From an uncultured bacterium (GTDB taxonomy: Bacteria; RBG-13-61-14; DATKZS01), in the NCBI GenBank assembly GCA_964650485.1, contig CAZYTX010000015.1:6182-70181 (forward strand): a stretch of 64,000 nt of DNA. The letters are read 5' to 3'. Under the pieces are notes generated by a model that searched no databases, was not told the DNA's origin, and saw only the letters and a program-made list of their open reading frames with translations. Of this stretch, positions 25,918 through 56,605 are shown piece after piece. The number at the start of each line of letters is the position of its first letter. Position 1 is the first letter of the stretch. The translations under genes were made by a program, and so were the position numbers.

Positions 25918-26913
25918 CTACTTCTCCACTATGGTCTCTTCGATCTTGACCCCGAAGTGTCGGCCGGCCTGCTCCAGGTACGCCAGCACCCGGTCCCCCG
26001 GTTTCAGCTCGGTGATGGATGCGGGCTCGCCGCCCGGCCGGGTCAGCCTTATGGTCTCTGCGTTCTGCATGACCAGTGACAGGGGCTCTCCCTTGTAGGC
26101 CGCTTCCACCAGCATCATGGGCCTTTTCTCCACCTTGGCCCTGCCCACGAAGCCGACCTCGGTGTTTCCCTTGTGGTCAACTATCAAAACCGGGTCGCCT
26201 ATGCTTATGTCCGCGAGGTAGGCTGTCTTTCCCTCGGGCGCCCGGGTGTATGCGTGCACCGCGCCGGCGTTCACGCGGAAGGGCCGGGTGGCGCAGTACG
26301 GGGTCTCCACGTTCTCGGCGTGCACCAGGAACATGCCCGAGCTTGCGTTGCCCACCAGGAGCCCCTGGCCGGGCGCCATGTTGGTGATGGTGTCAACGCA
26401 CACCCTGTCCCCCATTCCCAGGGGCTTTATTGACTTTATTGTGGCCTGGACGAGCTTTAGCTTCTCGCCCTTCTCCCGTATCACCGCCGCGGTCTTTTTA
26501 ATCTCGGAGAGGTCGTCGCTGTCCAGGACCACGCCTTCCACGCCCCTCTCCATTATCTTCAGGGCGATGCCGGCCTCCTCCGCGCTCCGCACCCATGCCA
26601 GCAGCCCCTTCCCCCGCTTTGCGATCAGGTTCTCCAGGGGAATGACCTTCCAGTCGCTGGTCTTTACGATCACCTTGTCCGCGCGCTCGCGCATGACCGC
26701 GGCCTCGTCCTTCTGGGATGATACCTTGCGCTCGACCACGTCCTGGCCGAGCTTTAAGTCCCCGTCCGGGGCCACTGTCTTCATCAGCCCGAGCGCATGC
26801 ACCTTGTCGGTCTGGCCCTTTGGCACCAGCACCGCTTCGGCCCCGCTCTCCAGGGCGGCGGTCACCACGTTTTTCTTATACGGTCTGGCATTGACCCAGA
26901 AAGTCCTGGCCAT
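25918..26913 (-). CDS. aroB': 3-dehydroquinate synthase II (archaeal-type AroB', acts on 2-amino-3,7-dideoxy-D-threo-hept-6-ulosonate)
   Basis: 331 aa. The N-terminal MARTFWVNARPYKKNVVTAALESGAEAVLV ... and length/architecture match DHQ synthase II (PF01959), and it is co-located with an AroA'-type aldolase. Confidence 0.65.
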   Translation of the reverse strand: MARTFWVNARPYKKNVVTAALESGAEAVLVPKGQTDKVHALGLMKTVAPDGDLKLGQDVVERKVSSQKDEAAVMRERADKVIVKTSDWKVIPLENLIAKRGKGLLAWVRSAEEAGIALKIMERGVEGVVLDSDDLSEIKKTAAVIREKGEKLKLVQATIKSIKPLGMGDRVCVDTITNMAPGQGLLVGNASSGMFLVHAENVETPYCATRPFRVNAGAVHAYTRAPEGKTAYLADISIGDPVLIVDHKGNTEVGFVGRAKVEKRPMMLVEAAYKGEPLSLVMQNAETIRLTRPGGEPASITELKPGDRVLAYLEQAGRHFGVKIEETIVEK

Positions 26914-26944
26914 TACATGCTCCTTTTCTGCATGCGCTGTCTGT

Positions 26945-27739
26945 TCAACCCTTGAGGACCTTCATGGCCTGGTCCGCGCTCTTGCCCTGGTGCACGATGG
27001 CGCATGCGGCCGCGACCAGCTTCGCCGGGGTCTCGTGCTGGAAGGCGTTTCTCCCCATGGATAGCCCCGCGGCCCCGGCCTTGATGGCGCCCTCGACCAT
27101 CTTGAGGGTGTCCTCGTCCGACAGCTTGGACCCGCCTGCTATGACCACCGGCACCGGGCACCCCTCGACCACCGTCTTAAAGGACTCGGCAGAGCCGGTG
27201 TAAGGCACCTTGACCAGGTCCGCGCCCAGCTCCGCGCCCAGCCGCGCGGCTATCTTCACGTGCTCCACGTCTTTTTCGTCCTCGACCTTGGGACCGCGCG
27301 GGTACACCATGGAGAGGAGGGGCATACCCCAGAAGAGCGCGTCCTCGGCCACCCTGCCGAATGCCTCCAGCATCTCGCCCTCGTTCTCCGCGCCTATGTT
27401 CACGTGTATGGACACCGCGTCCGCGCCCAGTTGTATGGCCCTCTCCACCGAGCACACCAGCACCTTGCGGTTGGGGTCCGGGGAGAGGCTGGTGCTCCCG
27501 GACAGGTGCACGATGAGCCCTATGTCGCGGCCGTACTTCCTGTGGCCGGCGCCCACCATGCCCCCGTGCTCGACCACGGCGTTGGCGCCCCCCTCGGCCA
27601 CCTTTTCCACCGCCTCGGGAAGGTCTGTTAGACCCTTGATCGGCCCCACCGTGACCCCGTGGTCCATGGGCACGATCACGGTCTTGCCGGTCTCGCGGTT
27701 CATGATCCGCTCTTTGCGGATCTCCTTGCCTATACCCAT
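26945..27739 (-). CDS. aroA': 2-amino-3,7-dideoxy-D-threo-hept-6-ulosonate synthase (AroA', DhnA-type class I aldolase)
   Basis: [21 protein letters not shown] ... LVKVPYTGS ... VVIAGGSK is the DhnA/FbaB-family Schiff-base aldolase pattern. It sits directly upstream of aroB'. Confidence 0.65.
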
Positions 27740-35478: not shown

Positions 35479-35853
35479 ATGAAACGAGTACTGGTGGTTG
35501 ATGACAGCCCCACCCTGGTAAGCGCGGCCTATGACGAGCTGGAGCAGAGGGGCTACGAGGTGGAGGTCGCCTATGACGGCAACAAGGCGATCGAGTACCT
35601 TTCGAAGAACCCGAACCTTATCCCCGACCTGATAGTCATGGACATCGAGATGCCCAAGATGCGGGGTGACGAGGCCGCCCGTAAAATCCGCGACAACCCC
35701 TCCTGGCGCCACATCCCTATTATCGCTTTGACCGCGACCAGCGCGGAGAGTATCGAGGACTGGGCAAGTCTTTTCGACAGCTACCTTGTAAAGCCTTTCG
35801 GGTTCGAGGAGATGCTTGAGCTGGTGGCCGAGATCATAGGCGGGCCCGGTTGA
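35479..35853 (+). CDS. Single-domain response regulator (CheY-like receiver)
   Basis: VLVVDDSPT...DLIVMDIEMPKMRGDE...PIIALTA...YLVKPF, with the phospho-acceptor Asp and conserved Lys. Confidence 0.8.
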   Translation: MKRVLVVDDSPTLVSAAYDELEQRGYEVEVAYDGNKAIEYLSKNPNLIPDLIVMDIEMPKMRGDEAARKIRDNPSWRHIPIIALTATSAESIEDWASLFDSYLVKPFGFEEMLELVAEIIGGPG

Positions 35854-35944: not shown

Positions 35945-36139
35945 TTATACTAATTCGTCGTCAAACGTATGGCAGTAATCCTCGGCAAAGAGATCAGCGA
36001 TTTCAGGAGCAGGCTTGCGCGGATGAGTCAACCAGATGGCAAGCCGCCTCTGATAGGCGTCCTTGCCGGGCGCTTCCCGCACCCACACCGCCAGTTCCTC
36101 GGGACTGAACCGGGGCTTGAGTTGAGCAGGTGGCAGCAT
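35945..36139 (-). CDS. Small hypothetical protein (64 aa) downstream of the glycyl radical enzyme
   Basis: Strong SD GGAGGTGA 4 nt upstream of the ATG, preceded by an AT-rich promoter-like stretch. Single Cys, no family recognised. Confidence 0.4.
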   Translation of the reverse strand: MLPPAQLKPRFSPEELAVWVREAPGKDAYQRRLAIWLTHPRKPAPEIADLFAEDYCHTFDDELV

Positions 36140-36410: not shown

Positions 36411-38957
36411 TCATAGTCCCGAGAACGCGCTCCTTTGGATGATGTCGTCCTGGACCGGCTTGCCCAGGTCAACGAAGTATGCGGAGTAGCCCGACACCCT
36501 GACCACAAGGTCCTTGTACCGGTCCGGGTGCTGCTGTGCCTCGCGGAGCACCTTGTCGTCCACCACGTTGAACTGCACCTGCATGCCACCCTGCCTGAAG
36601 TGGGCTCTTATCATTGCCGCCACCTTCTTAACGCCCGCGTCGGTGGCGAGCATGGTTGGCAGGAACTTTACGTTTGTGGAGGAGCCGTTCGGCGCCAGCC
36701 GGTGGTTTAACTTGGCAACGCTCTGCAGCGCGGCCACCGGCCCCTTCTTCTCGGCCTGGTTCGATGGGGAGAGGCTGTTGGACACGGGCTCGCCCGCGCT
36801 CCTGCCGTCCGGTGTCGCCGCAAGCACCGTGCCCTCGAACACGTGCATGCCGTACGAGAAGAAGCTTGGCCTGTATATGCCGCCCCGAAGGGGCTTGTGC
36901 TTCATGACCTCGGTGCAGAAGAACTCCGCCACCTCGCTCGCGATCGCGTCCGCCCGGTCGTCGTCCTGGCCGTACTTGGGGGCCCTGGTCTTGAGCCGCG
37001 CTTTCAGCTTCTCCTTTCCCTTGAAGTTATTCCTGTGCGCGTCCAGGAGCTCGGCCATGGACACGCTCCCCTGTTCGTATACCATCTCCTTTATGGCGGC
37101 CAGGGAGTCCGCCGCAGTGGCCAGGCCCCGGCCAGAGATGGAGTTGAAGTTGTACTGGGCCCCTCCCACGGTGGCGTCCTTCGCATTCTCGATGCACCCC
37201 TTCAGGGTGAGGGATACGAACGGGCAGGGCAGCATCTCCGCGTATGCCCGGTCTTTGAGGTCCGTGGCCCTGGCGATCAGGTCCACGCACGCGGCCACCT
37301 GTTTTTTATAAGCTTCCATGAACTGGTCGAAGGTCTTGAACTTTCGCGGGTCACCGGTCTTCGGTCCAAAGCGACTGCCGGCCATGCGCAGGTAGCCGTT
37401 GTTGAGCGTCATCTCGAAAGCGCCCACCAAAGACACGTCGTTTCCCGAGGTGCAGCCAAAGGTGTTCCCGTGCGAGGTCGGCTCCACGCACCCGATGATT
37501 GCATAGTCGCGCGCGTCCTCGATGGAGTAGCCGGAGTCGGCGAGAGCCGGCACGATGGCCTCGTCGTTGAATATGGAGGGGCCGTTGGCGCTCCTGTGAA
37601 TGGATACCACCTTTTCCACGTAATCATCCGGCGACTTTTCGCTTGTCCTGAAAGACATAGAGTTCGTCATGTGCTGCATGGTGGTGGTGGCCTTGATGAA
37701 CAGGTATGAGAGCGGGTTGGTGGCGTCCTCCCCGTCGCGGCCCACCCCGCCCACGGTCACGGCCATGTTGTCCGCGCCCAGCTCGGACCCGGTCTGCTTG
37801 CCGTAAGGAGGCAGCACGATCACGTTATAGGAGAGCTTTACGATCAGCTCCTCCAGAAGCTCGAGCGCCTGCTCCTCGGTGATGCTCCCTCCCTCCAGGT
37901 CCGCCTTCAGATACGGCCACAAATACTGGTCCATGCGTCCGAGCGCGAACACGCTGGGCATCCCGTATGATATGAGAGCCATGACCTGGGTGAGCCACAC
38001 GAACTGGAGGGCCTCGCGAAAGTCGCCCGGGGGATGCCAGGGCACTCGCCTGCACCGCTCGGCTATTGCGATAAGCTCGGCCTTGCGCGCCGGGTCCCGT
38101 TGCTCTCTCGCCTTTTCCTCGGCCAGCCTTGCAAAGCGCCCCGCAAAGACCCTGGCAGCGTCGCAGCATATGATAACGGAATCGAGGAAAGCCCCGGCCT
38201 CGGGGTCATTGCCCGCCTCCTGCAGCTTCTCCCCGGCCCTTTTCTTCGCGCCCTCGAACCCTCCTTCCAGCAGGTTCTTGTGACCTATGACCAGGTGGCC
38301 CTGCACGTCGAACACGTTCATGCACAGCCCCGGGTTGTTGACCGGTATCTCCTCCCCGGCCCGGGCCATGTACCTGGGGTTCCCGCCCGCGCTCTGCACC
38401 TGCTTGTACACGGCGCCCAGCCCGAAGCCCCGCACCCGGTCGAGCGAGCTTCTTGCCGTGAGCTTTACGGGAAAGTATAGGCCGCTTTGTTTCCAGAGCT
38501 CTTTCTTGCGCTCTCGTATGGTCTTGCTGTGCCAGTAGGGTAGGATGTCCTGCATGAGCTCGCGCTTCTCGTCTTCGGAGAGGCGGTAGGGCCTGTCCGG
38601 CCGGGTGAGGAGCTTTTCCAGTTCCATCTCCAGCACCAGGTTGATTTCGCCCCGCTCCACCGGTATCACCGCGGCCACCAGCTTGCCCGAGCGGTTGCCC
38701 ACTATGGCCTCCCGGTCCAGGATGTATACGGTCATGTTCTCCAGGGTGTGGGCGAAAGCCCGGGCCGCGCGCAGGGCAGGGTGCAGACCCCCGGTGCCCC
38801 TATACGATTCAGTGTAGTAGCGGGCCCGCTCGATGCATATCTCGTAGGGCGCGTCCAGGATCATTTTTCGCAGGGCATGAGTGCGGGATTGCGGCTCTGT
38901 CGTCTGGGGTGCGGGGATCCTGTTTTTTTCTGGAAGGCTTTCTACGGCTTCTGTCAT
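36411..38957 (-). CDS. Glycyl radical enzyme of the pyruvate formate-lyase superfamily (PFL2 / diol-dehydratase / lyase type; substrate unknown)
   Basis: 848 aa. Glycyl radical motif RVSGYSAYF near the C-terminus. Thiyl-radical Cys loop IIGCVEP. Central ...GRMDQYLWPYL... The whole architecture is PFL-like. Confidence 0.85.
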   Translation of the reverse strand: MTEAVESLPEKNRIPAPQTTEPQSRTHALRKMILDAPYEICIERARYYTESYRGTGGLHPALRAARAFAHTLENMTVYILDREAIVGNRSGKLVAAVIPVERGEINLVLEMELEKLLTRPDRPYRLSEDEKRELMQDILPYWHSKTIRERKKELWKQSGLYFPVKLTARSSLDRVRGFGLGAVYKQVQSAGGNPRYMARAGEEIPVNNPGLCMNVFDVQGHLVIGHKNLLEGGFEGAKKRAGEKLQEAGNDPEAGAFLDSVIICCDAARVFAGRFARLAEEKAREQRDPARKAELIAIAERCRRVPWHPPGDFREALQFVWLTQVMALISYGMPSVFALGRMDQYLWPYLKADLEGGSITEEQALELLEELIVKLSYNVIVLPPYGKQTGSELGADNMAVTVGGVGRDGEDATNPLSYLFIKATTTMQHMTNSMSFRTSEKSPDDYVEKVVSIHRSANGPSIFNDEAIVPALADSGYSIEDARDYAIIGCVEPTSHGNTFGCTSGNDVSLVGAFEMTLNNGYLRMAGSRFGPKTGDPRKFKTFDQFMEAYKKQVAACVDLIARATDLKDRAYAEMLPCPFVSLTLKGCIENAKDATVGGAQYNFNSISGRGLATAADSLAAIKEMVYEQGSVSMAELLDAHRNNFKGKEKLKARLKTRAPKYGQDDDRADAIASEVAEFFCTEVMKHKPLRGGIYRPSFFSYGMHVFEGTVLAATPDGRSAGEPVSNSLSPSNQAEKKGPVAALQSVAKLNHRLAPNGSSTNVKFLPTMLATDAGVKKVAAMIRAHFRQGGMQVQFNVVDDKVLREAQQHPDRYKDLVVRVSGYSAYFVDLGKPVQDDIIQRSAFSGL

Positions 38958-39385
38958 GGCGGGCTCCTTTCTGCCGATGCTTTTTTGTCTATCGGGCAGC
39001 TCACAAAAGCTATGTGGGCCACCCTCAACCCATACACCATGTCATAAAAATAGCTGATCAGAGGCGCCAATACAAGAAGAGCAAAGATATATGGCATCAC
39101 TCTTGTCCAAAACAGGATCAGGAAAATTTACCACAAAGTCGCAAAGGCACGAAGAATTAAAAGGATCAGGAGGATTGATTCAAGGCCTTGGCAAAGTCAA
39201 CCTGGATTTGGACATGGCAAAAAAAGAGGGGGCTTGCTCGCTTTTGACCCTCGCTTTGCCTTTTCTTCCTTGGCGTCTTTTCTGGTGCCTTGGCGTTTTG
39301 CTTTCGCTTCTGCCCTCGTTTATAATCCTTTTACTGTCCGGGTCTGCGTCAGGGAAGTGTTTTAGTAACGAGGAGGTTTAAGCCA

Positions 39386-40060
39386 ATGAGTGATAAGTAT
39401 GCCGAGCTTCGGCGCGATGTGTGCGATTACGCACGCAGGATGGCGGCAGAGGGGTGGGTCACGGGCTCTTCGGGCAACGTGAGCGTACGTGTCCCCGGGG
39501 AGGAGGGTCACTATGTTATAACACCCACCAGTATAAAGTACAACGAGCTTGTGCCCGATAACATAGTAGTCTGCGACGAGGAGGGGGACGAGGTCATCGA
39601 GGTTGAGAACGCGCCCAGCTTCGAGCTGCCGTTGCACGTTGCCGTGTACAAGGCCCGGCCGGACGCGAACGCGGTTTTCCACACCCATGCGCTCTACAGC
39701 ACGGTTTTATCGGTGCTGCGGCTTCCGCTGCCTCCCATAGTTGAGGAGCTGGTGCCCTACATCGGGGGCGAGATATTGGTGGCGGAGTACGGTCAGTCGG
39801 GCACGGACGATCTGGCCGAAAACGTGGTCAAGGCGCTCGGCGACAAGGGCGGGGTCTTCATAGCCAACCACGGCAACGTTTGCGTAGGCAAGAACCTGAA
39901 GAAAGCGTTCAACGTGTGCGCGCTGCTGGAGCGGACCGCGCAGACGTACGTGGAGTGCTTAAAGCTGGAAGGTCTTGGTCACGGTTCGGTGACGCGTCTT
40001 CCTGGCGAGGTGGTGGAGTCGGAGGCCGGGATGTACGAGGCCATGAAGGACTTCGACTGA
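39386..40060 (+). CDS. Class II aldolase/adducin-domain protein (L-fuculose-phosphate aldolase / MtnB-like)
   Basis: GSSGNVSVRV...HYVITPTS...AVFHTHALYSTVLS...VAEYGQSG match the class II aldolase metal-binding pattern. AGGAGG RBS upstream. Confidence 0.7.
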   Translation: MSDKYAELRRDVCDYARRMAAEGWVTGSSGNVSVRVPGEEGHYVITPTSIKYNELVPDNIVVCDEEGDEVIEVENAPSFELPLHVAVYKARPDANAVFHTHALYSTVLSVLRLPLPPIVEELVPYIGGEILVAEYGQSGTDDLAENVVKALGDKGGVFIANHGNVCVGKNLKKAFNVCALLERTAQTYVECLKLEGLGHGSVTRLPGEVVESEAGMYEAMKDFD

Positions 40061-40092
40061 TCGGCCCGGTCAAAGACTCATCTTGTCACAGG

Positions 40093-41265
40093 ATGTTACG
40101 CATGGAGACTGCGGCGAGGTTGGGGGCTTTTGCAGTGGTGCTGGCCCTGCAGGCCTTAGCCGCTTTTGTTTTTATACGCGGGCTCAAGCTCCCCTCGGGC
40201 TGGGCGTGGCCGGTCATATTCGCTTTCATACTTTTCAATTTTCCGCTGCCGTACCTGTTCTGGCTGCAGGCCGGCGCCAGGCAGGCTCCGTTTTGGGTTG
40301 CTGCGCTCGTTGTCAGGCCCTGCTTTGCCTGGCAGTTCAACTGGATCACTTTCCTTTTTATCGCCGGTCCACTGGTCATACTGGGATGGCTTTTTGCCTG
40401 GCTGTTCCACGCCCAGGCTATTATAAGCGTGATGAGATGGGTGCTGGTCCCGCTGGTGCTTGCCTGGTGGTCGCTCAGCTTTTACGGTCTGTTCGACACG
40501 GTGCGGCCGCCGGAGTACAACACCGTGGAGGTGGATCTTCCTGGCCTGCCGGCTTCCGAAGACGGCGCCAGGGTTGCGCTTCTCTCCGACCCGCACGTTG
40601 CCTGGTGGAACTCTGCCAGGGAGATATGCCACATAGGAAAAGCTATAAGGGAAATGGACCCCGACCTCTTCCTGGTGACCGGCGACATGGTGGACCACAA
40701 CCCCGATTACGTGCACGCGTTCGCGGACTGCATGGAGGGGATCGAGCCCCGGCTGGGAAGGTACGCCATCATCGGCAACCACGACGTTTACACGGGCAGG
40801 GAGGCGGTGGCCAGGCGCATGCAGGCCCGTGGCTTCGGGATGATAAGGAACCAGTGGATCAGCCTCGCGGACAAAGGCTCGGCGATTGTGCTGGCCGGCG
40901 TGGAGGACTCGGGCGTGAACTGGGCCGGCAAGGGCCCGGCAACTAAAAAGCTGCCCGGTATACTGGCCGACTGCCCGCAGCAGGCCCCGGTGATACTGAT
41001 GAAGCACAGGCCCTCGGACTTCAAGTACTACAAGGACCTGCCCGTGGACCTGGTGCTCTCGGGCCACACCCACGGGGGCCAGTTCAAGCTCCCCTTCGGC
41101 GGCCCGGGTCTCGCCCATATGACGTATAAGTATCCGGAGGGCCTGCACTCGCAGGGTGGAAAGACCACGTTCGTGAGCCGGGGCACAGGCACCGTGGGCT
41201 GGCCCTTCAGGCTTTTCTGCCCAAAGCAGGCCACCCTGATAATCCTGCGCTCGCCTGATGCGTGA
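40093..41265 (+). CDS. Membrane-anchored metallophosphoesterase (calcineurin-like, YkuE type)
   Basis: ~5 N-terminal TM helices, then LSDPHV...GDMVDHNPDY...IIGNHDVY...LSGHTHGGQ phosphoesterase motifs. Start ATG at 40093 (in-frame subset of ORF 39880..41265). Confidence 0.65.
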   Translation: MLRMETAARLGAFAVVLALQALAAFVFIRGLKLPSGWAWPVIFAFILFNFPLPYLFWLQAGARQAPFWVAALVVRPCFAWQFNWITFLFIAGPLVILGWLFAWLFHAQAIISVMRWVLVPLVLAWWSLSFYGLFDTVRPPEYNTVEVDLPGLPASEDGARVALLSDPHVAWWNSAREICHIGKAIREMDPDLFLVTGDMVDHNPDYVHAFADCMEGIEPRLGRYAIIGNHDVYTGREAVARRMQARGFGMIRNQWISLADKGSAIVLAGVEDSGVNWAGKGPATKKLPGILADCPQQAPVILMKHRPSDFKYYKDLPVDLVLSGHTHGGQFKLPFGGPGLAHMTYKYPEGLHSQGGKTTFVSRGTGTVGWPFRLFCPKQATLIILRSPDA

Positions 41266-47215: not shown

Positions 47216-48790
47216 TTACAAGGCCCCTGAAACTCCTTGTTCTTTTGAAGACAATATCATACTGGCAACATAGCGGTCCATAAAGTCCGGGTCAAGGTTG
47301 AGCTCCACGTGCCGGGTCCTCTCGGCCATGCCGCACGCCGTATCGAACATCTCGGGGTCGAGCATCATGGCCGCGCCCAGCCCTGCGCCGTTTGGAATGG
47401 AATGTATAAAAGACGGCCTGAACCCGGGCAGCAGCCCTATGTCCATCACCTCGGCGGGGTCCATCTTACCCCCGAAGCTGCCGGTCAGTATGACCCGTTC
47501 CAGGTCCTTAGTCTCCATTCCCGCGCGCTCGAGCAGTATCTCCACGGCCGCCCTGATGGCGCCCTTTGCCTTCTGCAGCTCGCGCACGTCGTTCTGGGAG
47601 AGGAATATGCCGGGAGAGAGCATGACACTCTTCCCGTCCCGCCCCTCCATGATCTTTATCCCGGGCGCGCTCCCCGGCTCCGCGATCCTGCCGGAAGGCT
47701 CTATGGCGCCCGCCTCTATAAGCGCGGTCACCGCGGACAGGAGCCCGCAGCCGGAGAGCCCTTTTGGCTTGCCGCCGCCAATTGTCGAGAGCTCCAGCCC
47801 ATGGTCCCGGCTCCACTTAACCCCGCTTATGGCGCCGTGGCCAGCCCTCATGCCGCAGCTTATGTTCACCCCCTCGAACGCGGGACCCGCGGCGGTGCTC
47901 GCTGCCATGAGCCTGCCGCCGGCTGCCAGCATGACCTCGCCGTTGGTGCCGAGGTCTATGGCAAGAGCATTGCACTCCTTTTCCATGTGGAAGGAAAGCA
48001 TGCAGGCGAGCGCGTCCGAGCCCACGAACCCGCCTATCAAGGGCGCGAAGCGGACCTCTGAGAGCCCCGGGAACAACGAGCCGATGGCCTCGGGCCTGTA
48101 CTCGACCGGCCCGGTGCGGCTTGGCTCGAAAGGTGAGCGCAGGAGCGTACCCACGGGCAGCCCAAGCGCCAGGTGGTGCATGGCCGAGTTTCCCACCGCG
48201 GTTGCCCTTTCCACCCGCTGGCGGGCGCTCGCATCCAGCCCGAGTCCCCGGGCAGCCTCTGCCACGCTCTTCCAGGCCAGCTCGCGCAGGAGTTCCTGGT
48301 TCTTCTCTGCAAAGCCCAGCCTGGACATGACCTCTGCCCCGTGCGAGGTCTGCAGGTTCAGGGTTGCATGGCCGGCGAACACCCTGCCCTCTTCGAGCCC
48401 CGTGATAAAGCAGGCCACCGTGGTGGTGCCCAGGTCAATGGCAAGGCCGAGGGGTCCGGGGACCTTTGACAGGTCCGCGCCGGTTGAAAAGGACTTGTCA
48501 GTGAAGACCGCGGGCGCCTCCATCTGCACCCGGGCCTCTCCAAGCACCTTTGTCTGGCATGCTAGCCTTATGCCCTTTTTGATCTCGTCCTCGCCAAGGT
48601 GCTTGAGCTCGTTTTCAGTGAGCGGGGAGAGCTCTCCGCCGGCCTTGACCCTGCACTTCCCGCACTTGCCCCTTCCCCCGCATGGCCGGTCAAGCAGCAC
48701 TCCCGCGGACAGTATGAGGTCGTCCAGCCTGGCGCCCGGCTCCGCGTCTATCTCCATGGAGGCGTCCTTCATTTCCAGCAGCAGCTTCAT
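47216..48790 (-). CDS. ASKHA-domain protein with N-terminal plant-type [2Fe-2S] ferredoxin domain (RACo-like reductive activator of corrinoid proteins, DUF4445)
   Basis: N-terminal CGGRGKCGKCRV...LACQT ferredoxin Cys pattern. LAIDLGTTTVA is the actin/Hsp70-fold phosphate-1 motif. Later ALAIDLGTNGEV and LTGSFGG complete the ASKHA signature. Stop overlaps the pepA-side spacer; start overlaps the upstream rSAM stop. Confidence 0.65.
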   Translation of the reverse strand: MKLLLEMKDASMEIDAEPGARLDDLILSAGVLLDRPCGGRGKCGKCRVKAGGELSPLTENELKHLGEDEIKKGIRLACQTKVLGEARVQMEAPAVFTDKSFSTGADLSKVPGPLGLAIDLGTTTVACFITGLEEGRVFAGHATLNLQTSHGAEVMSRLGFAEKNQELLRELAWKSVAEAARGLGLDASARQRVERATAVGNSAMHHLALGLPVGTLLRSPFEPSRTGPVEYRPEAIGSLFPGLSEVRFAPLIGGFVGSDALACMLSFHMEKECNALAIDLGTNGEVMLAAGGRLMAASTAAGPAFEGVNISCGMRAGHGAISGVKWSRDHGLELSTIGGGKPKGLSGCGLLSAVTALIEAGAIEPSGRIAEPGSAPGIKIMEGRDGKSVMLSPGIFLSQNDVRELQKAKGAIRAAVEILLERAGMETKDLERVILTGSFGGKMDPAEVMDIGLLPGFRPSFIHSIPNGAGLGAAMMLDPEMFDTACGMAERTRHVELNLDPDFMDRYVASMILSSKEQGVSGAL

Positions 48791-50169
48791 CTTCTGCCCA
48801 GGTTCCTCCTGATCAAGGATACGCCCTCCCCGGCCTCGGATAAAAACGCGGGCAAGGACCTCACCGACATGAGCCTCCTTGCAAGGTAGCCGGGCCTTAG
48901 ATAAAAGTCGCGCACAGCCTCGGCCTTGAGAGCGGCAACCTCCTGCCGGGACAATGCCCTGGTGCGCATGGACACAACCTCGCCGGCCTGGTCAGGGTCA
49001 ACACCCCGGGCCGCCAGGCCCTCGTCCTCGGCCGTTGTCCTGAGCCCGGTGGCCGCCCTGGGCACGGCCACGTTGTAGGACACAAAGTCGGGGTCAAGCT
49101 CGCGTGCAAGCCTCATGGTGGCGCGCACCGTGTGCTCGGTGTCCTCCGGCAGCCCGATTATAAAGGTGGCCACGGTCCTTATCTTGTGTTCTCTGCACAG
49201 CTCGAACCCCCGGCGCACCTTGTCCATGGCAAGCCCCTTGCGGTAGGCCTCCAGGATGTCCTGGTCCGCGCTCTCCACCCCCATGATCAGGGTGTGGCAG
49301 CCCGCTGTTTTAAGGGCCTTCACAAGGTCGGGGTCGAGCAGGTCTGCCCGGGTGAAGGTGGTCCATCCCATGCCCGGCGCCTTTGCAGCCATTTTCTTCA
49401 GCAGTTCGAGCGACCTTTTCCTGCGGGCCCCAAAGCACTGGTCGGTCACGAACAGCTCTCGCACCCCGCGGTTTTTAAGCCAGCAGAGTTCTTCGATCAC
49501 CTCGGCGCAGGGCCGGAGCCTGTATCCCAGGGATGCCATCACGCAGAAGCTGCACTTGAAGGGGCAGCCGAAGTCCGTGAGCACGGTGGCAAACCTCCTG
49601 CCTCTGGCAAAACTGAACCTGTAGCCCTTGTGTCCGAACAGCTCGTGGAGCGGTCTTCCCAGGGAGAACTCTTGTGAAGGCCCCGGGTCAAAGTCGCCTT
49701 TAACACCGCCGTCCTCGCGCACCACGAGGTCCGGCCCTGCCCTGCCCGTGTCGAGGTAAGTCTTAAGCCCGCTGCTCACGAACCTGAGAAGGGCCCCCTT
49801 TACAAAGGGGTGCTCGCGGAGCCACTCTTCCGGCCTGTCAAGGAAGACCTCGCCGGTTATGAAGAGGTCAGCGTCAACCCGGGCTGCGAGCTCCTTGTAA
49901 AAGGCTTTGTCCCCGGAGTCGGTGACCGCGCCCCACAGGCCCAGCACCGCCTGGGGGCCGATCTTTTCAATCTCCTGCATGCACTGATCGGTGGAGAGCT
50001 TCCTTGCCACCGCGTCAATGGCGTGCACCTCGCATGACCGGGCCAGTATTCCGGACTGCATAAGGAGGTCAATGGGCTGGAACAGGTAGTTCGACTTGGT
50101 GTGCTTGGAGCAGTAGTAGTCCCGGATGACCACGTCCCGGGCAGGCGGGTTCAAGAGCAGTATCTTCAA
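48787..50169 (-). CDS. B12-binding-domain radical SAM protein (class B rSAM, 460 aa), paralog 1
   Basis: N-terminal Rossmann-like B12-binding region MKILLLNPPA...HAIDA, and radical SAM cluster motif FGCPFKCSFC. 4-nt overlaps at both ends. Confidence 0.75.
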   Translation of the reverse strand: MKILLLNPPARDVVIRDYYCSKHTKSNYLFQPIDLLMQSGILARSCEVHAIDAVARKLSTDQCMQEIEKIGPQAVLGLWGAVTDSGDKAFYKELAARVDADLFITGEVFLDRPEEWLREHPFVKGALLRFVSSGLKTYLDTGRAGPDLVVREDGGVKGDFDPGPSQEFSLGRPLHELFGHKGYRFSFARGRRFATVLTDFGCPFKCSFCVMASLGYRLRPCAEVIEELCWLKNRGVRELFVTDQCFGARRKRSLELLKKMAAKAPGMGWTTFTRADLLDPDLVKALKTAGCHTLIMGVESADQDILEAYRKGLAMDKVRRGFELCREHKIRTVATFIIGLPEDTEHTVRATMRLARELDPDFVSYNVAVPRAATGLRTTAEDEGLAARGVDPDQAGEVVSMRTRALSRQEVAALKAEAVRDFYLRPGYLARRLMSVRSLPAFLSEAGEGVSLIRRNLGRR

Positions 50170-51356
50170 CCGGCTTCCCCCAGGGCCCTCTTAACGGCGG
50201 CGAACGCTTCATCCACGCTTATGCCTGTAAGACACTCGGGCTCATCGCGCATGCACCTCACCGTCTTTGCGTTGTAGATGTTTATGCAGGGCGAGCAGTC
50301 TATGCCCCGGTATAGCACGACGTGTCCGGGGCCCCGTGGCCCGAACAGTTGCGGGGTCTCTGGCCCGAAGAAGCTCACGGTCTTTGTGCCCAGCGCGTCC
50401 GCGAGGTGGAGCGGCCCGCTGTCGTTTGTGATAAGCAGGTCCGATCTCTGGAGCACCCCTACCAGGTCCCGGAGAGACGACTCCCCTGCAAGGCTCACCA
50501 CTGCGTCTGGGTCCCGGGCCCTCTTGCGCACCCCTTGCACGAACTCTGCCTCACCGGGCGTGCCCAGGAGCACCACCCTTCCCAGGGCTTCCCGGTTAAT
50601 CCTGTCAATCAGCTCCACGAAGCGGCCCTCCGGCCACCTGCGCGCAAGCGCCACCGTGGACGCGTTCGGGTTTACCGCGATCACTTGCTCACCCTCCTGC
50701 ACGCCCTTCCTGTGGAGGAGTGCCATGGCCCTTTCCTTCTCATCTCCTTTCGTATTCAGCTTCACCGGACTCGGCTCGTCGCTGTCATTGCAAAGGGCCC
50801 TCTCCAGGTTCATGAAGTTCAAGGTCACGTGCCAATAGGGGTTGAAGGCCCTTTGATTGTTGTGCAGGTCTCCTCTCCACACGTCCCAGCTATGGAAGCC
50901 GACCCTTACGGGTGCGCGCGACAGGCTGGTGACTATGGCTGAGAAGCGGGAGAGGTACTCGAGATCAATCACCGCGTCCAGCCCGATCTCTCTGACCGAG
51001 GAGAAGAAGCGGAGAATGTTCCACGCCACACCGGGCGCACTCTCGGGCAGGTCCAGGTAGTGCACTTGGTCCGCGATGTGGAGCAGCTCGACAATGCCCC
51101 TGTTCTGCTCCAGGGTAATAAGGTGTATCCTGGCGCCGGGGTTTGTGTTCCTCATGGCGTAGAACACCGGCGCGGCAAGGATGAGGCTGCCCATGCCCCA
51201 GAACTTTATCACCCCGATGTCTTTAAGGTCTGGTGCCCGGGGGTTAACGCCGGGCCTAGCCTTGTCCCTGCCCCGGGCTCTTTCGTACAGGGTGAGCGCG
51301 GCGCATATGGGCACTCCGGCGAAGCGGTCAATGCGCTTCATCCACTGCATGTCCAT
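50166..51356 (-). CDS. Glycosyltransferase family 9 (ADP-heptose:acceptor heptosyltransferase-like)
   Basis: IGVIKFWGMGSLILAAPVF...LLITNDSGPLHLADALGTKTVSFFGPE matches the GT9 fold motifs. Start chosen at MDMQWMK so that TGATG overlaps the upstream rSAM stop; the annotated ORF has a spurious 100-aa N-terminal extension. Confidence 0.7.
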   Translation of the reverse strand: MDMQWMKRIDRFAGVPICAALTLYERARGRDKARPGVNPRAPDLKDIGVIKFWGMGSLILAAPVFYAMRNTNPGARIHLITLEQNRGIVELLHIADQVHYLDLPESAPGVAWNILRFFSSVREIGLDAVIDLEYLSRFSAIVTSLSRAPVRVGFHSWDVWRGDLHNNQRAFNPYWHVTLNFMNLERALCNDSDEPSPVKLNTKGDEKERAMALLHRKGVQEGEQVIAVNPNASTVALARRWPEGRFVELIDRINREALGRVVLLGTPGEAEFVQGVRKRARDPDAVVSLAGESSLRDLVGVLQRSDLLITNDSGPLHLADALGTKTVSFFGPETPQLFGPRGPGHVVLYRGIDCSPCINIYNAKTVRCMRDEPECLTGISVDEAFAAVKRALGEAG

Positions 51357-52779
51357 CACACCCACCCCCTGAACTCGATCACCATCCTGGCGAACGCCGG
51401 CATCCCCCTCACTCCCACGTCGCGCCTTATCACCCGCCACACCCGGGAGGGGCTCGCGTAGAACCTTCGGTAGGCGCGCCTGCGCCATGCCTGGAGCTCG
51501 GCCGGGCTCATGCCGGGCAGGTCCATCACCGCGAAGTTCTGTTCGAACCTGTGCCAGGGCTCCTGCTCGACCCAGCCCTTCTCTGAAGCCGTGTTGAACA
51601 AGGGGGACCCCGGGAAGGGCACGGCGCAGTAGAACTGGGCGTAGTCGAGCGGGAGCGAGCATGCAAAATCAATGGTCTGCCTGACGGTGTCCTCGGTCTC
51701 CCCCGGGTATCCCAGCACCATGTGGGCGGTGACCTGGAGCCCGGCCTTCTTTGCCTGCTCGACCGCCTGCCGGTTCCGCTCGACCGTGACCTTCTTGTTC
51801 ATGAGGTCCAGTATGCGCTGGCTACCGGACTCCAGCCCCAAGCCTATCATCCAGCACCCGGCCCGGTGCAGGAGCCCGAGCAGCTCGGGGTCCACGTGGT
51901 CGGTGCGCGAGTTCACCACGAAGCGCACTCCAAGGTCGAGCTTTATGATCTCCTCCAGCACCCGGGCGGCCCACTCCCTGTTCAGGGTGAACGACTCGGA
52001 CCAGAACAGGAAGTCGTATATGGCGAATTCCTCGCGCACGTGTTCGATCTCCGCCGCGACCCTCTCCGGCGACTTTGTGCGCAGCTTGTGGCCGTAGTAG
52101 GCCGGGTCCGCGCAGAAGGTGCAGTGATAGGGGCACCCCCTGGATGTGCCTATCAAGAGGAAAGGCTTTGCCGAGAAGGGCATCCTGTAGAGATGCGTCT
52201 TTACAAGGCCCCAGGCAGGGAAAGGGAGCTGGTCCAGTACGGCCGGCTCGCGGTCGGGACCGTGCGAGAACCCGTCTCCGTCCCGGAGGGACATGCCGGG
52301 TATGCCTTTTAGTGTCTGGCCCCGCTCCACGGCCCTGGCGGCGTCGCGCACGGTGAGCTCGGGCTCGCCCCGCACCACCGCGTCCAGGCCGGCCGCTGTT
52401 TTCAAGGACTGCTCGGGCAGCGCCGTCACGTGGATGCCGATGGCCAGTATTTTTGAGTCCGGGAACTCCTTCTTGAGCTCGTCCGCGAGCCCGAGGTCTG
52501 AGTCTATGGAGGGCGTGGCGGTGTTTATAACGAACATCCGGGGCTGGAAAGCACGCGCCCGCTGGAGCAGCTCGTCTTTGTCCAGTCCCTCGATGATGCA
52601 GTCATCCAGCCGGCACCCGGCCCCTTCATCCTCCAGCACCGCTGCGATGGTGGCAAGCGATATGGGGGCCCACACCGCGGTCCATGCCCCGGCCCTCTGC
52701 ATGCACCTGCCCTCGCGCACCATGTCCACGCCGGATGCCGCGGGCGGGTTTATCATCTGGATACGCAAGCTCATACCAT
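51356..52779 (-). CDS. B12-binding-domain radical SAM protein, paralog 2
   Basis: Start at MSLRIQMINPPAAS (B12-binding fold), and radical SAM motif SRGCPYHCTFCADP. ORF track start 53113 is inside the upstream GT2 gene. Confidence 0.75.
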
Positions 52780-53460
52780 CTCCCGGAACAGTCTTATGAA
52801 GAACTTGTGCGCCTTCCTGAAGGTGGGCAGCTTTGACTTCCCCCCTGCTCTCGCGTACTCGTGGCTCCCCACTTCTCCCACCCGGAGCCCCTTTTTCAAC
52901 GCCTTCATCACCATCTCGTGCTCGATATCGAAGTCGTATGCGGAGAGGCCCAGGGACAGCGCCTTCTCCCTGTCCATTGCCCTGAAGCCGTTCAGGCAGT
53001 CGGTGAGCTCGACCTTGAAACGGAAAGATATGGCGATGGCCAGGAGGTTCCCGCCCAGGTCGCGGACAAAGTGGGTGAAGTTCGGGTGCACGTCGTCCGA
53101 GCCGCCGCGCCACCTGGATGCGATCACCATGTCCAGGTCGCCGGAAAGAATGGGGCCTGCCAGCCGGGGTATGTCGTCCGGGTCGTGGGACCCGTCCGCG
53201 TCCAGGAAAACCGCCACCTCTCCCGAGGCCTTCTCCAGGCCGGTGCGGTAGCCGTCACCCTTGCCGAGGCCGCTGTCCTCGAAAACCTTGGCGCCCGCGG
53301 CCTGGGCCAGCTCCCGGGTGCGGTCCCTGGAGCGGCCGTCAATGACCAGCACCTCGTCCGCACGGGGCAGGCACCTCTCCACCACGCTCTCAATGGTGGC
53401 TTCCTCGTCTTTTGCAAGAATCACCGCGGATACTTTGACAACCCGTGTATGCATAATCAA
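52771..53460 (-). CDS. GT2 family glycosyltransferase (polyprenyl-phosphate sugar synthase, DPM1-like)
   Basis: VSAVILAKDEEATIESVV...VLVIDGRSRDRT...VFLDADGSHDP (DxD) are GT-A signatures of Dpm1/GtrB-type enzymes. Overlaps the neighbours on both sides. Confidence 0.7.
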   Translation of the reverse strand: MIMHTRVVKVSAVILAKDEEATIESVVERCLPRADEVLVIDGRSRDRTRELAQAAGAKVFEDSGLGKGDGYRTGLEKASGEVAVFLDADGSHDPDDIPRLAGPILSGDLDMVIASRWRGGSDDVHPNFTHFVRDLGGNLLAIAISFRFKVELTDCLNGFRAMDREKALSLGLSAYDFDIEHEMVMKALKKGLRVGEVGSHEYARAGGKSKLPTFRKAHKFFIRLFREMV

Positions 53461-55328
53461 ATGCCCAGCCCGATGGTGATCTCTTGCGGGGGATTAACTA
53501 TTCCTATGAAGCCCACAGGATCGCCGCCCTTTGAAACCTTCACAAGCTCGGCCGGTGGACAGGACTGCAAGCCGTCCACCCAATGATAGGATACCACCGC
53601 AAGCCCCGAAGGTGTAGACACGCTTGAAAGCTCGATCTTTCCGAGCTTTGCTTTTACGCTGCCCGAGCCCTGCAGGAAGAAGTCGCGCTCGCGGTCCAGG
53701 ACGTAGGCTTCGATTTTTCCAAAGGTCTCGGAAAGCCTCGCGCCCTGGTATCTTGACATGCGCTCCCTGGAGGATGCGGAGAAGCATACGACCCAGCCTA
53801 TGTTGTAGAGCTCCATGGCCCGGTCGAGATCCTGGTCGGTGTACTCGGACACCGGCCTCGTGAGCAGGAGCCCGTCGTGGAACCCGGCGTAGTGGTGCTT
53901 TATGAATGCGTTCGGGAGAGGCCCGCCGATGAGCTCCCGGGGCGTGAGCAGGGGCAAGAGGTGCACCAGCCTGGCGCCGCCGTATACGTCCGAGTACTGC
54001 CCCTCCCACACGTTTATGTCCTCGATGAGGATGCGGGCGCTCCTGTCGGTGTTCTCGCGCACCCACGAGACCAGCTCCCGGCTGTTTTTGTCGAGCGTTG
54101 TTGTAAGGGGCGCCGCGCGGCTGAATGCAAGGAAGCTCGGCAGCAGGAGCAATGCGGCGAGGGCCGCGGCAAAGAGCGCCAGGGCTATGGCACGGCCCCC
54201 CTTGATGCGGGTTGCCGCGATCCAGTCGCTTGCCCTTTTGAGGCCCCAGCCGCTTGCCGGCAGCCACATGAAAAAGTATGCGGTCACGTAGCGGTAGGGC
54301 TGCAAATGCATGAGCCGCTCCGAGAAGGAGCCGAAGTAGGAGAGCAGGAGGAAGAACACCACAGCAGCGAGCAGGGGCGCGGCGAGCGCAGGCGACCTGT
54401 GCCTGATGAAGAAGAGCCCGCCTATGCCTGTGGCCACGATGAGCAGCCTGGCAAGGGGCAGGGCGTAAAAGGGCTGCAGCGGGACCATGTCCTTTATCCA
54501 CCTGAAAGGGTCAACGTTCTGGAAGAAGGTGGTTGCGGGGTCCAGGGTCTTCAGGTGCATGAACCTGAAGAAGGGGTATAGCCAGTGGAGGTTCACCATG
54601 AGAACGAACGCGAACGCCCCCACAAGGAGCATGAGGTCCCGGGGCCGGAGCGAGGGCGAGAACATGAGTATCCATACAAGGGCGATCGGCAGCACCAGCA
54701 CGAAAGCGGTCTTGTGCACGGTGAGGGAGGCGGCCAAAGCGAACAGGAGCAGTGCATAGGCCCGGTTCTCCTTGAGGTGCATGAACCGGTAAATGAGCGA
54801 GAGCGGGACCAGGAAGAAGTGGAGCAGGAAGGCGCCGGAGATCATGCCCATGCGGCCGAAGAAGGCGCACTCCGATACCCAGAAGTATACTACGCCCAGG
54901 GCGGAGGCGCACAGTGCCGGGCCGCGGCCGAGCCCGAACCAGCGCATGGAGAAATAGAGCGACAGGGGGGCCAGCGCAAAGCTCCCGATAAAGAGCAGCT
55001 TGATGATGCGGGCGAGGTCTTGGCTTTTAAAGACTACGGCGACAAGCTGCACGGGCAAAGCGGAGTTGAACACGAAGTCCAGGGGATAGCCGGCCATGAA
55101 GAAGGGGTCGTAACCCCACATCCTGCCGTGCTCGCTCGCAAGCTCGCGGGCAGCGTTCGCCCAGTAGTACTGCGAGCAGAAGTCAACGTTGAGTACGGGC
55201 CGGGTGTTTACGATGTGTTCAAATGACTTGAAAGACGATAGGGTGAGGCAGACCTGCAGGATGAGGAGTATGCCAAGGACCAGTGCCGTGTACCCGGCCG
55301 GGAGTCTTTTCTGTTGAGTGTCTCTCAT
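53457..55328 (-). CDS. Polytopic membrane protein (623 aa, >=11 TM, C-terminal soluble domain), putative GT-C-fold glycosyltransferase
   Basis: Topology and size resemble PMT/ArnT-like GT-C enzymes. It is first in an operon with a DPM1-like GT2, the classic donor/transferase pairing. No diagnostic motif confirmed. Confidence 0.4.
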   Translation of the reverse strand: MRDTQQKRLPAGYTALVLGILLILQVCLTLSSFKSFEHIVNTRPVLNVDFCSQYYWANAARELASEHGRMWGYDPFFMAGYPLDFVFNSALPVQLVAVVFKSQDLARIIKLLFIGSFALAPLSLYFSMRWFGLGRGPALCASALGVVYFWVSECAFFGRMGMISGAFLLHFFLVPLSLIYRFMHLKENRAYALLLFALAASLTVHKTAFVLVLPIALVWILMFSPSLRPRDLMLLVGAFAFVLMVNLHWLYPFFRFMHLKTLDPATTFFQNVDPFRWIKDMVPLQPFYALPLARLLIVATGIGGLFFIRHRSPALAAPLLAAVVFFLLLSYFGSFSERLMHLQPYRYVTAYFFMWLPASGWGLKRASDWIAATRIKGGRAIALALFAAALAALLLLPSFLAFSRAAPLTTTLDKNSRELVSWVRENTDRSARILIEDINVWEGQYSDVYGGARLVHLLPLLTPRELIGGPLPNAFIKHHYAGFHDGLLLTRPVSEYTDQDLDRAMELYNIGWVVCFSASSRERMSRYQGARLSETFGKIEAYVLDRERDFFLQGSGSVKAKLGKIELSSVSTPSGLAVVSYHWVDGLQSCPPAELVKVSKGGDPVGFIGIVNPPQEITIGLGI

Positions 55329-55473
55329 GCATTCAATTTGTTAAGAGTCTTTCTTGAAAGCCATGCGTTCCCTGAAGTTCTGTAACGGTACAGACTTATA
55401 AAAAGAAAAGAGTTTAAACAGGCGGCCTTGCATAATTATTAACATTTGAATCAAGATAAAATAAAGCTTGCTC

Positions 55474-55502
55474 TTGACAGAAAAACTTTTCATATTATAC
55501 CA
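55474..55502 (+). promoter_or_regulatory. Candidate sigma70-type promoter for the PPC-domain lipoprotein gene (TTGACA ... TATTATAC)
   Basis: TTGACA at 55474-55479 in an AT-rich 280-bp divergent region. The -10 assignment is ambiguous: spacer is 13-17 nt depending on which hexamer is used. Confidence 0.25.
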
Positions 55503-55609
55503 TAACTAGTTGAAACTTTCATCTCACATCCGGCTACTATTCACGCAAACATGAATAAGAATGTCCGATTCCGGACGCAGGTGAAAAATCAAAAAAGGAG
55601 AATGAAGTC

Positions 55610-56605
55610 ATGAAGACAAAGGTTTTCGCTTTGTCGGTCGCGGCGCTTTTTTTAGTCGGGACCTACGCCTGTTCGCTGAAGGAAGTGGATAAAGCGGTGG
55701 ACACCGCGGATAAGGCGGCGGGCCTGGCTGAAAAGTTCGAGGACAAGGCCGAGGAAAAGAAGGGGTCCTCCGAAGGGGGAGAGACCGCCCAGGCTGCCGG
55801 AGGGGTTAGGCAACAAAGCGGTGTAAGGATTGACAAGTACGAGCCCAACGAGGACCTGCTGAGCCCCACCCAGGTCGAGTTGCCAGCCACCATAAAAGCC
55901 ACAATCGAGCCCGCAGGAGATATTGATTTTTACAAGTTCCACGTTGCCTCGAACAAAAGGGAATTGGTGAATGTCACCTTGCTTAACCCCACCACCAACC
56001 TTCGTCCTTGTTTGCATTTTTACAACCAGAACAGGGAACGCTTTGGGGGAACTGGTAGAGTACAACCCGGAACTGCAAAGGTCGGTGGAGAAATTATCGC
56101 CCTGCCAAATCAGGATTACTATGTAGCAGCATGTACTTCTTCATCAGGCAATTGCGCATGCAGAGAATCAGGAGGAAATTCCAGCAAGTATTACACCCTG
56201 AAGATAGAGCTTGCCGGAGTGGGTGATAAATATGAGCCCAATGAATCACTTACTGAGGCCACCACAGTCTCCCCCGGGAAAATAAAAGGCACCATCAACC
56301 CGAAAAACGACAAGGATGTTTACAAGGTCCGGTTCAGCAGGTCCGGCACAGTAAAGGTCACATTCCATAACCCCACGCTTAACCTTCAACCTTGTCTGCA
56401 TTTTTACGACCAGAACCGGCAACAATTTGGTCAAACGAGTAGGGTTCAAGCCGGCGCAGCCAAGACCGGAGGCAAATTCAATGTACAGCCCAATCAGGAT
56501 TATTATGTAAAAGTATGTACCTCTTCATCAGGTAATTGCGCATGCAGAGGATCGGGAGGAAATTCAGAAAAACCTTACACCCTTGAGATCAGGATGGTAG
56601 AGTAA
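55610..56605 (+). CDS. Lipoprotein/secreted protein with two tandem pre-peptidase C-terminal (PPC)-like domains
   Basis: Signal peptide MKTKVFALSVAALFLVGTYAC. Two ~125-aa repeats, each DKYEPNE...IEP.GD.DFYKF/VYKV...L.N.PCLHFY.QNR..FG...YYV..CTSSSGNCACR..GGNS.K.YTL, matching the DxYEPND...D.DwY.F...YYi.V pattern of PPC domains. Lower GC than neighbours. Confidence 0.5.
   Translation: MKTKVFALSVAALFLVGTYACSLKEVDKAVDTADKAAGLAEKFEDKAEEKKGSSEGGETAQAAGGVRQQSGVRIDKYEPNEDLLSPTQVELPATIKATIEPAGDIDFYKFHVASNKRELVNVTLLNPTTNLRPCLHFYNQNRERFGGTGRVQPGTAKVGGEIIALPNQDYYVAACTSSSGNCACRESGGNSSKYYTLKIELAGVGDKYEPNESLTEATTVSPGKIKGTINPKNDKDVYKVRFSRSGTVKVTFHNPTLNLQPCLHFYDQNRQQFGQTSRVQAGAAKTGGKFNVQPNQDYYVKVCTSSSGNCACRGSGGNSEKPYTLEIRMVE

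Follow-up and report, generated by a model that had tools for sequence, protein, structure and literature searches.

A glycyl radical enzyme gene of an uncultured bacterium belongs to a large uncharacterised clade habitually unlinked from an activase

Introduction

The function of a glycyl radical enzyme (GRE) is usually discovered through the neighbourhood of its gene, i.e., the activase and pathway genes that accompany it, and the genes for glycerol dehydratase (GD) and propanediol dehydratase (PD) normally adjoin that of their own activase. Here we describe a GRE gene located at positions 36411-38957 (minus strand) of a 64,000-nucleotide stretch of DNA from an uncultured bacterium (GenBank assembly GCA_964650485.1, contig CAZYTX010000015.1), referred to below as the window. 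As judged by its sequence, the encoded protein is a member of a large uncharacterised clade of GREs with a Cys-x-Glu (CXE) motif that is habitually unlinked from an activase.

The CXE motif has been defined as the mark of GRE 1,2-eliminases and isomerases in a 2026 review of these enzymes, which also states that whole clades, especially archaeal ones, remain unannotated (PMC13450708). Members of the clade described here occur in Asgard archaea as well as in bacteria, and unassigned GREs have been noted in the same taxa (PMC6258724). Two labels are already in use. A formate-producing pflD (pyruvate formate-lyase, PFL) is listed, and was found transcribed, in the Asgard genomes behind two of the loci that we compared (L009 and L010), its identity with the clade member of these loci being unconfirmed (PMC11291895). 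PflD-like Asgard GREs have in turn been read as alkyl- or benzyl-succinate synthases in a study in which the Hermodarchaeota GREs were 33-38% identical to Archaeoglobus fulgidus PflD (PMC8163825).

Results and Discussion

The GRE gene and the motifs identified in its product are the following.

36411-38957, minus strand: GRE gene, 848 amino acids, ATG start, apparently monocistronic (open reading frame and translation)
36486-36500, minus strand: Gly loop R820-V-S-G823-Y824, the glycyl radical site (translation)
37479-37493, minus strand: Cys loop G489-C490-V-E492-P493, with the thiyl-radical Cys and the general-base Glu of the CXE motif (translation)
38295-38309, minus strand: beta-1 motif D217-V-Q-G-H221 (translation and HMMER alignment to 1r8w)

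The open reading frame (ORF) is intact throughout its 848 codons, and an AAAGGAG Shine-Dalgarno sequence can be read a few bases 5' of the ATG. The product has the pair of domains that characterizes the superfamily, a PFL-like barrel (PF02901, 581 bits) followed by the C-terminal glycine-radical domain (PF01228, 110 bits; IPR004184), together with its two motifs, a Gly loop of the form RVxG[FWY] (RVSGY, G823) and the Cys of the Cys loop (GCVEP, C490). An AlphaFold2 model, for which 36 homologues served as input, had a mean pLDDT of 88.7 and a pTM of 0.90, and its comparison by Foldseek with all solved PFL2-type GREs gave TM-scores of 0.83-0.88 at 27-34% identity. The Gly and Cys loops are invariant or nearly so in 45 sequences of the clade, which we call the orphan clade, and three of a sister subclade. 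When 36 to 48 homologues were compared, more than 100 residues, including every catalytic one, were invariant across bacteria and archaea. The earlier note on this DNA, made from the sequence alone, was thus right in calling the protein a genuine GRE, and the gene looks functional. A gene in decay, or a silent one whose product is never activated, would fit the lack of an activase and of pathway genes nearby; this is hardly credible in view of the intact reading frame, the conservation just described and a clade of more than 1000 members, and transcription of a gene named pflD is reported for wetland Asgard genomes in which the clade occurs (PMC11291895).

A database search with the GRE returned more than 1000 proteins at E<=1e-50, and the 120 best were 51-75% identical to it. 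The closest group (67-75%) consists of about 20 proteins from bacterial metagenome-assembled genomes (MAGs). Relatives at 50-58% come from Asgard archaea (Frey-, Atabey-, Jord-, Hel-, Thor- and Hodarchaeota) and from Planctomycetota, Hydrogenedentota, Desulfobacterota, Myxococcota and other bacteria; the bacterial hosts of the clade live in anoxic sediments and wetlands. The SecA protein encoded in the window shows 59-75% identity to proteins of bacterial MAGs, and no more than 54% to those of named Deltaproteobacteria or Thermodesulfobacteriota. Since the relatives of SecA parallel those of the GRE, the comparison suggests that the latter is a vertically inherited resident gene of this uncultured lineage.

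The linkage between GRE and activase genes was assessed by two unbiased scans with peptide patterns, one of species-representative genomes and one of metagenome contigs, which together yielded 160 loci, each flanked by up to 10 kb per side. A locus was assigned to the clade when its GRE was at least 50% identical over the C-terminal 475 residues; other GREs were below 48%. Among the non-redundant clade loci, with GREs 47-75% identical overall, an activase gene was adjacent in only 3 of 97 (L056, L111 and L120), and in 2 of the 59 flanked by 1.2 kb or more on both sides. In contrast, for the other GRE clades found in the same scans, a control set made up of whatever other GREs the two patterns happened to catch, an activase was present in 32 of 43 loci with the same minimum flanks (about 74%; 26 strong matches and 6 weaker, NrdG2-like ones). 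No activase was found in the 650 kb of flank searched around the first 49 orphan loci. Weak matches in L023, L035 and L044 were discarded as they correspond to ferredoxin-domain or MoaA-like proteins, and the activase of L111/L112, a single exception nested within the orphan clade, is an unrelated one. The difference between 3 of 97 and about 74% indicates that the unlinked state is clade-wide. Therefore, a lone GRE gene with no linked activase, which had been taken for an oddity of this locus, is the normal state of the clade.

Some of the genomes hold more than one GRE. The Planctomycetota MAG RA.bin122 (JAKLEA01) has two orphan-clade paralogues on different contigs (L035 and L041) with no activase nearby. 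In two Desulfobacterota MAGs a second, very divergent GRE gene lies 6-8 kb from that of the orphan clade (L031, 18118-21162, minus strand; L040, 19771-22212, plus strand). These second enzymes, of about 1015 and 814 amino acids, respectively, have the Cys loop GC[VL]EP and the Gly loop R[IV]SGY; neither locus has an activase, and in L040 a CoA-transferase-like ORF comes after the gene. The Asgard archaea have a further, separate group of GREs (L046-L060 and L135-L139; 37-40% identity) with strongly conserved neighbours, among them a 246-amino acid NrdG2-like activase (TIGR02495, 157 bits) encoded a few kb upstream; this group may correspond to the Hodarchaeales microcompartment loci of PMC12747264.

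The window was then considered in full. It covers 64 kb of the 71.5-kb source contig and extends 25 kb to one side of the GRE gene and 36 kb to the other. Motif, Pfam, NCBIfam and activase hidden Markov model (HMM) searches agreed in that no GRE activase is encoded in these 64 kb, as the earlier note had proposed. The CxxxCxxC motif occurs in only four ORFs of the window, all of them radical S-adenosylmethionine (SAM) genes. The activase HMM, built from 20 activases that adjoin other GREs in the fetched loci, was run against every stop-to-stop ORF of 60 amino acids or more and had no match at E<=0.01; such a scan would also detect the remnant of a frameshifted activase. Its silence excludes a frameshifted activase within the 64-amino acid ORF, or the AT-rich stretch, next to the GRE gene, a possibility raised in the earlier note. 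The radical SAM genes are the following.

7542-8822, plus strand: anaerobic sulfatase maturase, radical SAM/SPASM (TIGR03942, 387 bits, cut-off 349; Pfam Radical_SAM, SPASM and SEC-C)
48787-50169, 51356-53113 and 56940-58340 (region 48787-58340), minus strand: three other radical SAM genes, B12-binding or B12-like (Pfam, NCBIfam)

A B12-binding domain was detected in the products of 51356-53113 and 56940-58340, and that of 48787-50169 is B12-like by NCBIfam similarity only. The best NCBIfam matches of the three were HpnJ/PhpK-like and far under the cut-offs, and none matched the activase HMM. By these comparisons none of the four is a GRE activase, and the earlier note was right in that no PFL-activase-like gene lies nearby.

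The way in which the orphan GREs may be activated is suggested by the sister subclade. It was found through close relatives of the activase of L056 (TIGR02494, 312 bits, cut-off 174) and comprises L056, L084, L086, L087 and L120, each with an activase gene immediately downstream of the GRE gene. The GREs of L084/85, L086 and L087 are 48-49% identical to the window GRE over the full length, and that of L056, which lies on a frameshifted low-coverage contig, is 56% identical over its C-terminal half. In quick neighbour-joining trees with no support values, L084/85, L086, L087 and L120 formed a basal branch beside the orphan clade; L056 was left out of the trees and was placed with the subclade by its activase. 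Within the subclade the activases share 53-69% identity, and their identity to other activases does not exceed 48%. The GREs of L085, L086 and L087 keep every signature residue of the orphans, the Gly loop and the pocket being identical. Since a canonical activase is retained in a subclade whose active-site signature is the same, we infer that the ancestor had a GRE and a canonical activase as a pair and that the orphans are activated in trans by an ordinary canonical activase, whose gene would lie elsewhere in the genome or whose product would also serve another GRE. A precedent exists in E. coli, where PflA, the activase of another GRE, acts in trans on TdcE, and the sequence of the Gly loop is one determinant of activase specificity (PMC13450708). 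TdcE differs in that it is a formate lyase with a Gly loop identical to that of PFL, and in that the unlinked state described here marks a whole clade. The complete Freyarchaeia and Atabeyarchaeia genomes with orphan members (L009 and L010), for which 6 and 5 genes of the PFL-activase family K04069 are tabulated, respectively (supplement of PMC11291895), also agree with activation in trans. A relocated activase of the sister type was considered as the partner of the orphans and rejected because only about five close relatives are present in the protein database, all of them beside sister-subclade GREs.

A different explanation would be activation by a non-canonical radical SAM enzyme, the candidates being the SPASM and B12-binding proteins of the window. 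That four radical SAM genes are present, none of them an activase, and that the orphan clade has no recognisable dedicated activase lineage would agree with this explanation. We consider it very unlikely because these genes lie 10-28 kb away and one is a bona fide sulfatase maturase, the census of neighbours and the activase HMM revealed no radical SAM family that recurs near clade members, and the sister subclade, with the same Gly loop, has a canonical activase. Furthermore, no precedent is mentioned in the 2026 review (PMC13450708).

To place the window GRE among the known enzymes, its NCBIfam scores were compared with the cut-offs of the families.

TIGR01774 (PFL2/glycerol dehydratase), the best match: 629 bits, cut-off 678, below
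HypD, NF043068: 559 bits, cut-off 1100, below
HpsG, NF048011: 528 bits, cut-off 1000, below
CutC, TIGR04394: 510 bits, cut-off 1050, below
E. coli PflD equivalog: 499 bits, cut-off 1109, below
PFL, TIGR01255: 151 bits, cut-off 994, below

The scores are about half of the cut-offs for the equivalogs of characterised eliminases and of PflD, and in comparisons with the Protein Data Bank the enzyme is at about equal distance from all characterised eliminases and isomerases. Alignment of C490-V-E492 with C433-V-E435 of GD shows that the CXE motif is present, and the Glu is predicted to contact a hydroxyl of the substrate. GD from Clostridium butyricum (1R8W/1R9D) and PD (5I2G) share with the window GRE the ten-stranded barrel (TM-score 0.85, 33-34% identity), the Cys-x-Glu loop, the Gly loop and the beta-1 His (H164 in GD, H221 here). 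The rest of the GD pocket is different: D447, Y339, Y640 and Q636 are replaced by S504, A395, F700 and R696, the position of H281/S282 is variable in the clade, and H164 is the only one kept among the subfamily residues H164, H281/S282, Y339, D447 and Y640. In addition, there is an extra segment of about 40 residues before beta-1 (three short helices, approximately 150-215; residues 149-216 against 133-159 of GD), which is absent from GD and across which clade members align and other GREs do not.

The likeness to other eliminases is also partial. CutC (5FAU; TM-score 0.86-0.88) has the CXE motif and its T502-S503 align with T503-S504, but the trimethylammonium contacts D216 and Y506 of CutC correspond to H221 and D507, and the neighbour census found no microcompartment or cut-operon context beside clade members. 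The C-S lyases IslA, IseG and HpsG (7KQ3, 5YMR, 6LON) also have the CXE motif. One beta-1 site is common to several of these enzymes (IslA Q193, CutC D216, HypD H160), with an upstream Arg in IslA (R189) and HypD (R156) (PMC8473560); in the window GRE the site is H221 and the upstream position is D217. R696 followed by F700 appears to be spaced as R678 and F682 of IslA beta-8 (from alignment offsets and PMC8473560). R189 and Q193, the remaining sulfonate anchors, are replaced by D217 and H221, so that at most one residue of the R189, Q193, R678 triad is kept. A. fulgidus PFL2/PflD (2F3O; TM-score 0.86) is likewise an uncharacterised archaeal GRE of the CXE type, of debated function and commonly mislabelled as PFL, yet at about 32% identity it belongs to a separate clade.

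These comparisons point to a place for the window GRE among the CXE eliminases and isomerases, with a pocket that otherwise matches no characterised member; we infer that its substrate is none of the known ones. Residues D217, Q219, H221, G332, E392, D396, T401, T503, S504, G505, N506, D507, R696, F699, F700, Y702 and H705 are invariant in the clade. Those in the pocket (D217, H221, E392, D396, T503, S504, N506, D507, R696, F699, F700, Y702 and H705) speculatively suggest a small polar substrate with hydrogen bond-donor or cationic groups plus an anionic group.

Both labels in use can be weighed on the same evidence. The PFL reading, in which the enzyme would make acetyl-CoA and formate, is favoured by the database name "pyruvate formate lyase family protein" and by the listing and discussion of pflD for the genomes behind L009 and L010 (PMC11291895). 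The Cys-Cys pair of PFL is missing here, the residue before C490 being a Gly, E. coli PFL aligns over the C-terminal 190 residues only, the TIGR01255 score is that listed above, and the CXE motif marks eliminases and isomerases. This is the least probable of all the readings that we considered, and the enzyme is not an ordinary PflB, as the earlier note had implied. Hydrocarbon activation by an alkyl- or benzyl-succinate synthase-like enzyme was proposed for the PflD-like GREs of Hermodarchaeota and Archaeoglobus (PMC8163825). Such enzymes share the single catalytic Cys, and the sequence quoted for the Gly loop of BSS and IBSS, RVSGYSA, is also that of the window GRE. Nonetheless, the window GRE scored 400-490 bits against eliminases and only 246 against BSS and 282 against MasD (4PKC/9O8U) when compared with the X-succinate synthases (BSS/ASS/MASS), its CXE Glu and beta-1 His are those expected of an eliminase, and clade members have neither small-subunit genes nor conserved neighbours of any kind, all of which makes this role most improbable. 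The single Cys, the CXE motif and the scores disfavour both labels for the clade, and pflD/PFL is very probably wrong.

The genes that flank the GRE gene bear on one more reading. They are the following.

38958-39385, no strand: divergent intergenic region between the GRE and aldolase genes, 428 bp, with the GRE Shine-Dalgarno sequence, presumably a promoter, and an 18-nucleotide direct repeat (sequence)
39386-40060, plus strand: class II aldolase family gene (Pfam Aldolase_II, 178 bits; under the cut-off of all NCBIfam equivalogs, including every FucA)
40093-41265, plus strand: membrane-anchored calcineurin-like metallophosphoesterase (Pfam Metallophos, 55 bits; translation)
35945-36139, minus strand: 64-amino acid ORF downstream of the GRE gene, with a strong Shine-Dalgarno sequence (translation)
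35479-35853, plus strand: stand-alone response-regulator receiver protein, convergent with the GRE gene (Pfam Response_reg)

The flanks are as described in the earlier note with regard to the class II aldolase, the membrane phosphoesterase and the 64-amino acid ORF. The 287-amino acid ORF (40083-40946, plus strand) of the program-made ORF list is a wrong-frame artefact, rich in Arg, Gly and Pro, and the true gene is that at 40093-41265. The same note had likened the aldolase to fuculose-phosphate aldolase and implied a link with the GRE, which would then be a B12-independent diol or glycerol dehydratase of a fucose or rhamnose pathway. In favour of this reading, the two genes are indeed divergently arranged and one of them does encode a class II aldolase; GD (1r8w) is the best match in the Protein Data Bank in both sequence and fold, and H221, C490 and E492 are shared with GD and PD. 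However, GD and PD are no closer to the window GRE than CutC or HypD (all at 30-34% identity and TM-scores of 0.85-0.88), the GD pocket is changed as described above, the TIGR01774 score is below the cut-off, and the clade does not have the NGHS and WHD motifs that are retained in the GD-like GREs found by these scans. The neighbours also argue against it. An aldolase homologue is absent from all 167 related loci, including about 100 clade loci and the eight relatives at 67-75% identity, and homologues of the metallophosphoesterase were found at only two of the 167, both outside the clade (L065 and L167). Since neither gene stands beside any other clade member, the fucose/rhamnose-to-diol reading is unsupported and has very little probability; the divergent pairing is best read as a coincidence.

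No other neighbour replaces them. All-against-all clustering of the ORFs in the clade loci revealed no recurring gene family, and a Pfam census of two genes per side at 45 clade loci (147 neighbours) gave Response_reg 5 times, HAD 3 and OsmC 3, with Aldolase_II in the window only. The window has no synteny with the eight closest relatives beyond the GRE gene itself, and no conserved small ORF was found beside clade members by neighbour comparison and tblastn. The 64-amino acid ORF had no Pfam, NCBIfam or activase HMM match and no tblastn homologue in the 167 related loci; as far as these searches can tell, it is not a fragment of an activase, and no GRE small subunit can be recognised in it. 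Receiver-only genes also adjoin the GRE gene in L009 and L029, probably by chance. A phospholipid head-group theme, hinted at by CDP-alcohol phosphatidyltransferase (L056, L084, L002), GDPD (L087), HAD (L001) and PAF-AH (L002) genes, was dropped because, when searched for directly, these genes did not recur outside two related loci.

Taking these results together, we favour a functional stand-alone CXE-type GRE of a large uncharacterised clade, which would be activated in trans and would carry out eliminase-type chemistry, with a rough probability of 0.7. Several points weigh against this reading. The search of this genome for an activase, which found none, covered 64 kb of one contig, the trees that define the sister subclade are quick ones with no support values, and the chemistry is read from motifs. 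Besides, the archaeal K04069 matches may include radical SAM proteins that are not GRE activases, and the sister activase lineage has so few database relatives that the partner of the orphans is not simply that lineage moved elsewhere.

If the enzyme acts as proposed, a canonical radical SAM GRE activase encoded elsewhere in the genome would put the radical on G823, from where it would move to C490. The C490 thiyl radical would then take a hydrogen from a carbon that bears, or lies next to, a hydroxyl, E492 would deprotonate the hydroxyl of the substrate, and H221 would aid the departure of the neighbouring leaving group, the product being a carbonyl compound. A further proposal, to which we give slightly less than an even chance, is that the clade catalyses an undescribed GRE reaction, in which a small polar metabolite of common occurrence would undergo 1,2-elimination or isomerisation to give a carbonyl product that enters central metabolism and needs no dedicated pathway genes. 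If so, this would explain why a lone gene occurs both in Asgard archaea and in many phyla of bacteria. The enzyme would share its activase with another GRE system or borrow it from one, and published reconstructions of Asgard and sediment metabolism would be mistaken in giving pflD/PFL and Ass/Bss roles to members of the clade.

An abundant, highly conserved and almost context-free clade defeats the finding of function by gene neighbourhood. The matter has practical consequences, since the pflD/PFL label has already been used to infer the production of acetyl-CoA and formate by wetland Asgard archaea, and similar GREs have been read as hydrocarbon-activating; on the evidence of the active site, neither label is safe. 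The sister subclade offers ready-made GRE/activase pairs with the same pocket, such as those of L084 and L086, and with them a practical route to the reconstituted enzyme and its substrate.

Other Features of the Window

The AT-richer divergent region between the GRE and aldolase genes contains the 18-nucleotide direct repeat AAnAGGATCAGGAnnATT, whose copies lie 48 nucleotides apart at 39111-39128 and 39159-39176 and could be a regulator binding site. A simple promoter scan called no sigma-70-like site in 38958-39385, and an Rfam search found no riboswitch or other RNA family in the window or in the flanks of the GRE genes. The region also contains a 96-amino acid ORF (39091-39381, plus strand). 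Several antisense ORFs lie within the GRE gene (36514-38480, plus strand), and their apparent conservation only mirrors the GRE coding frame. Gene calls in the fetched loci were crude, longest-ORF ones, and high-GC antisense ORFs displaced the true GRE gene at several loci.

The sulfatase maturase encoded at 7542-8822 (plus strand) has an unusual addition, a C-terminal SEC-C zinc motif. The three B12-type radical SAM genes belong to a cluster at 47216-58340 (minus strand) that also includes a RACo-like corrinoid reductive activator (47216-48790), a GT9 heptosyltransferase and an unknown 623-amino acid ORF. It may be a B12-dependent modification cluster. Finally, at 25918-27739 (minus strand), a gene for 3-dehydroquinate synthase II (DHQS-II; PF01959, 413 bits) adjoins that of a DeoC/LacD-family aldolase, a pair that corresponds to the archaeal-type ADH-synthase/DHQS-II route to aromatic amino acids and is here found in a bacterial contig.

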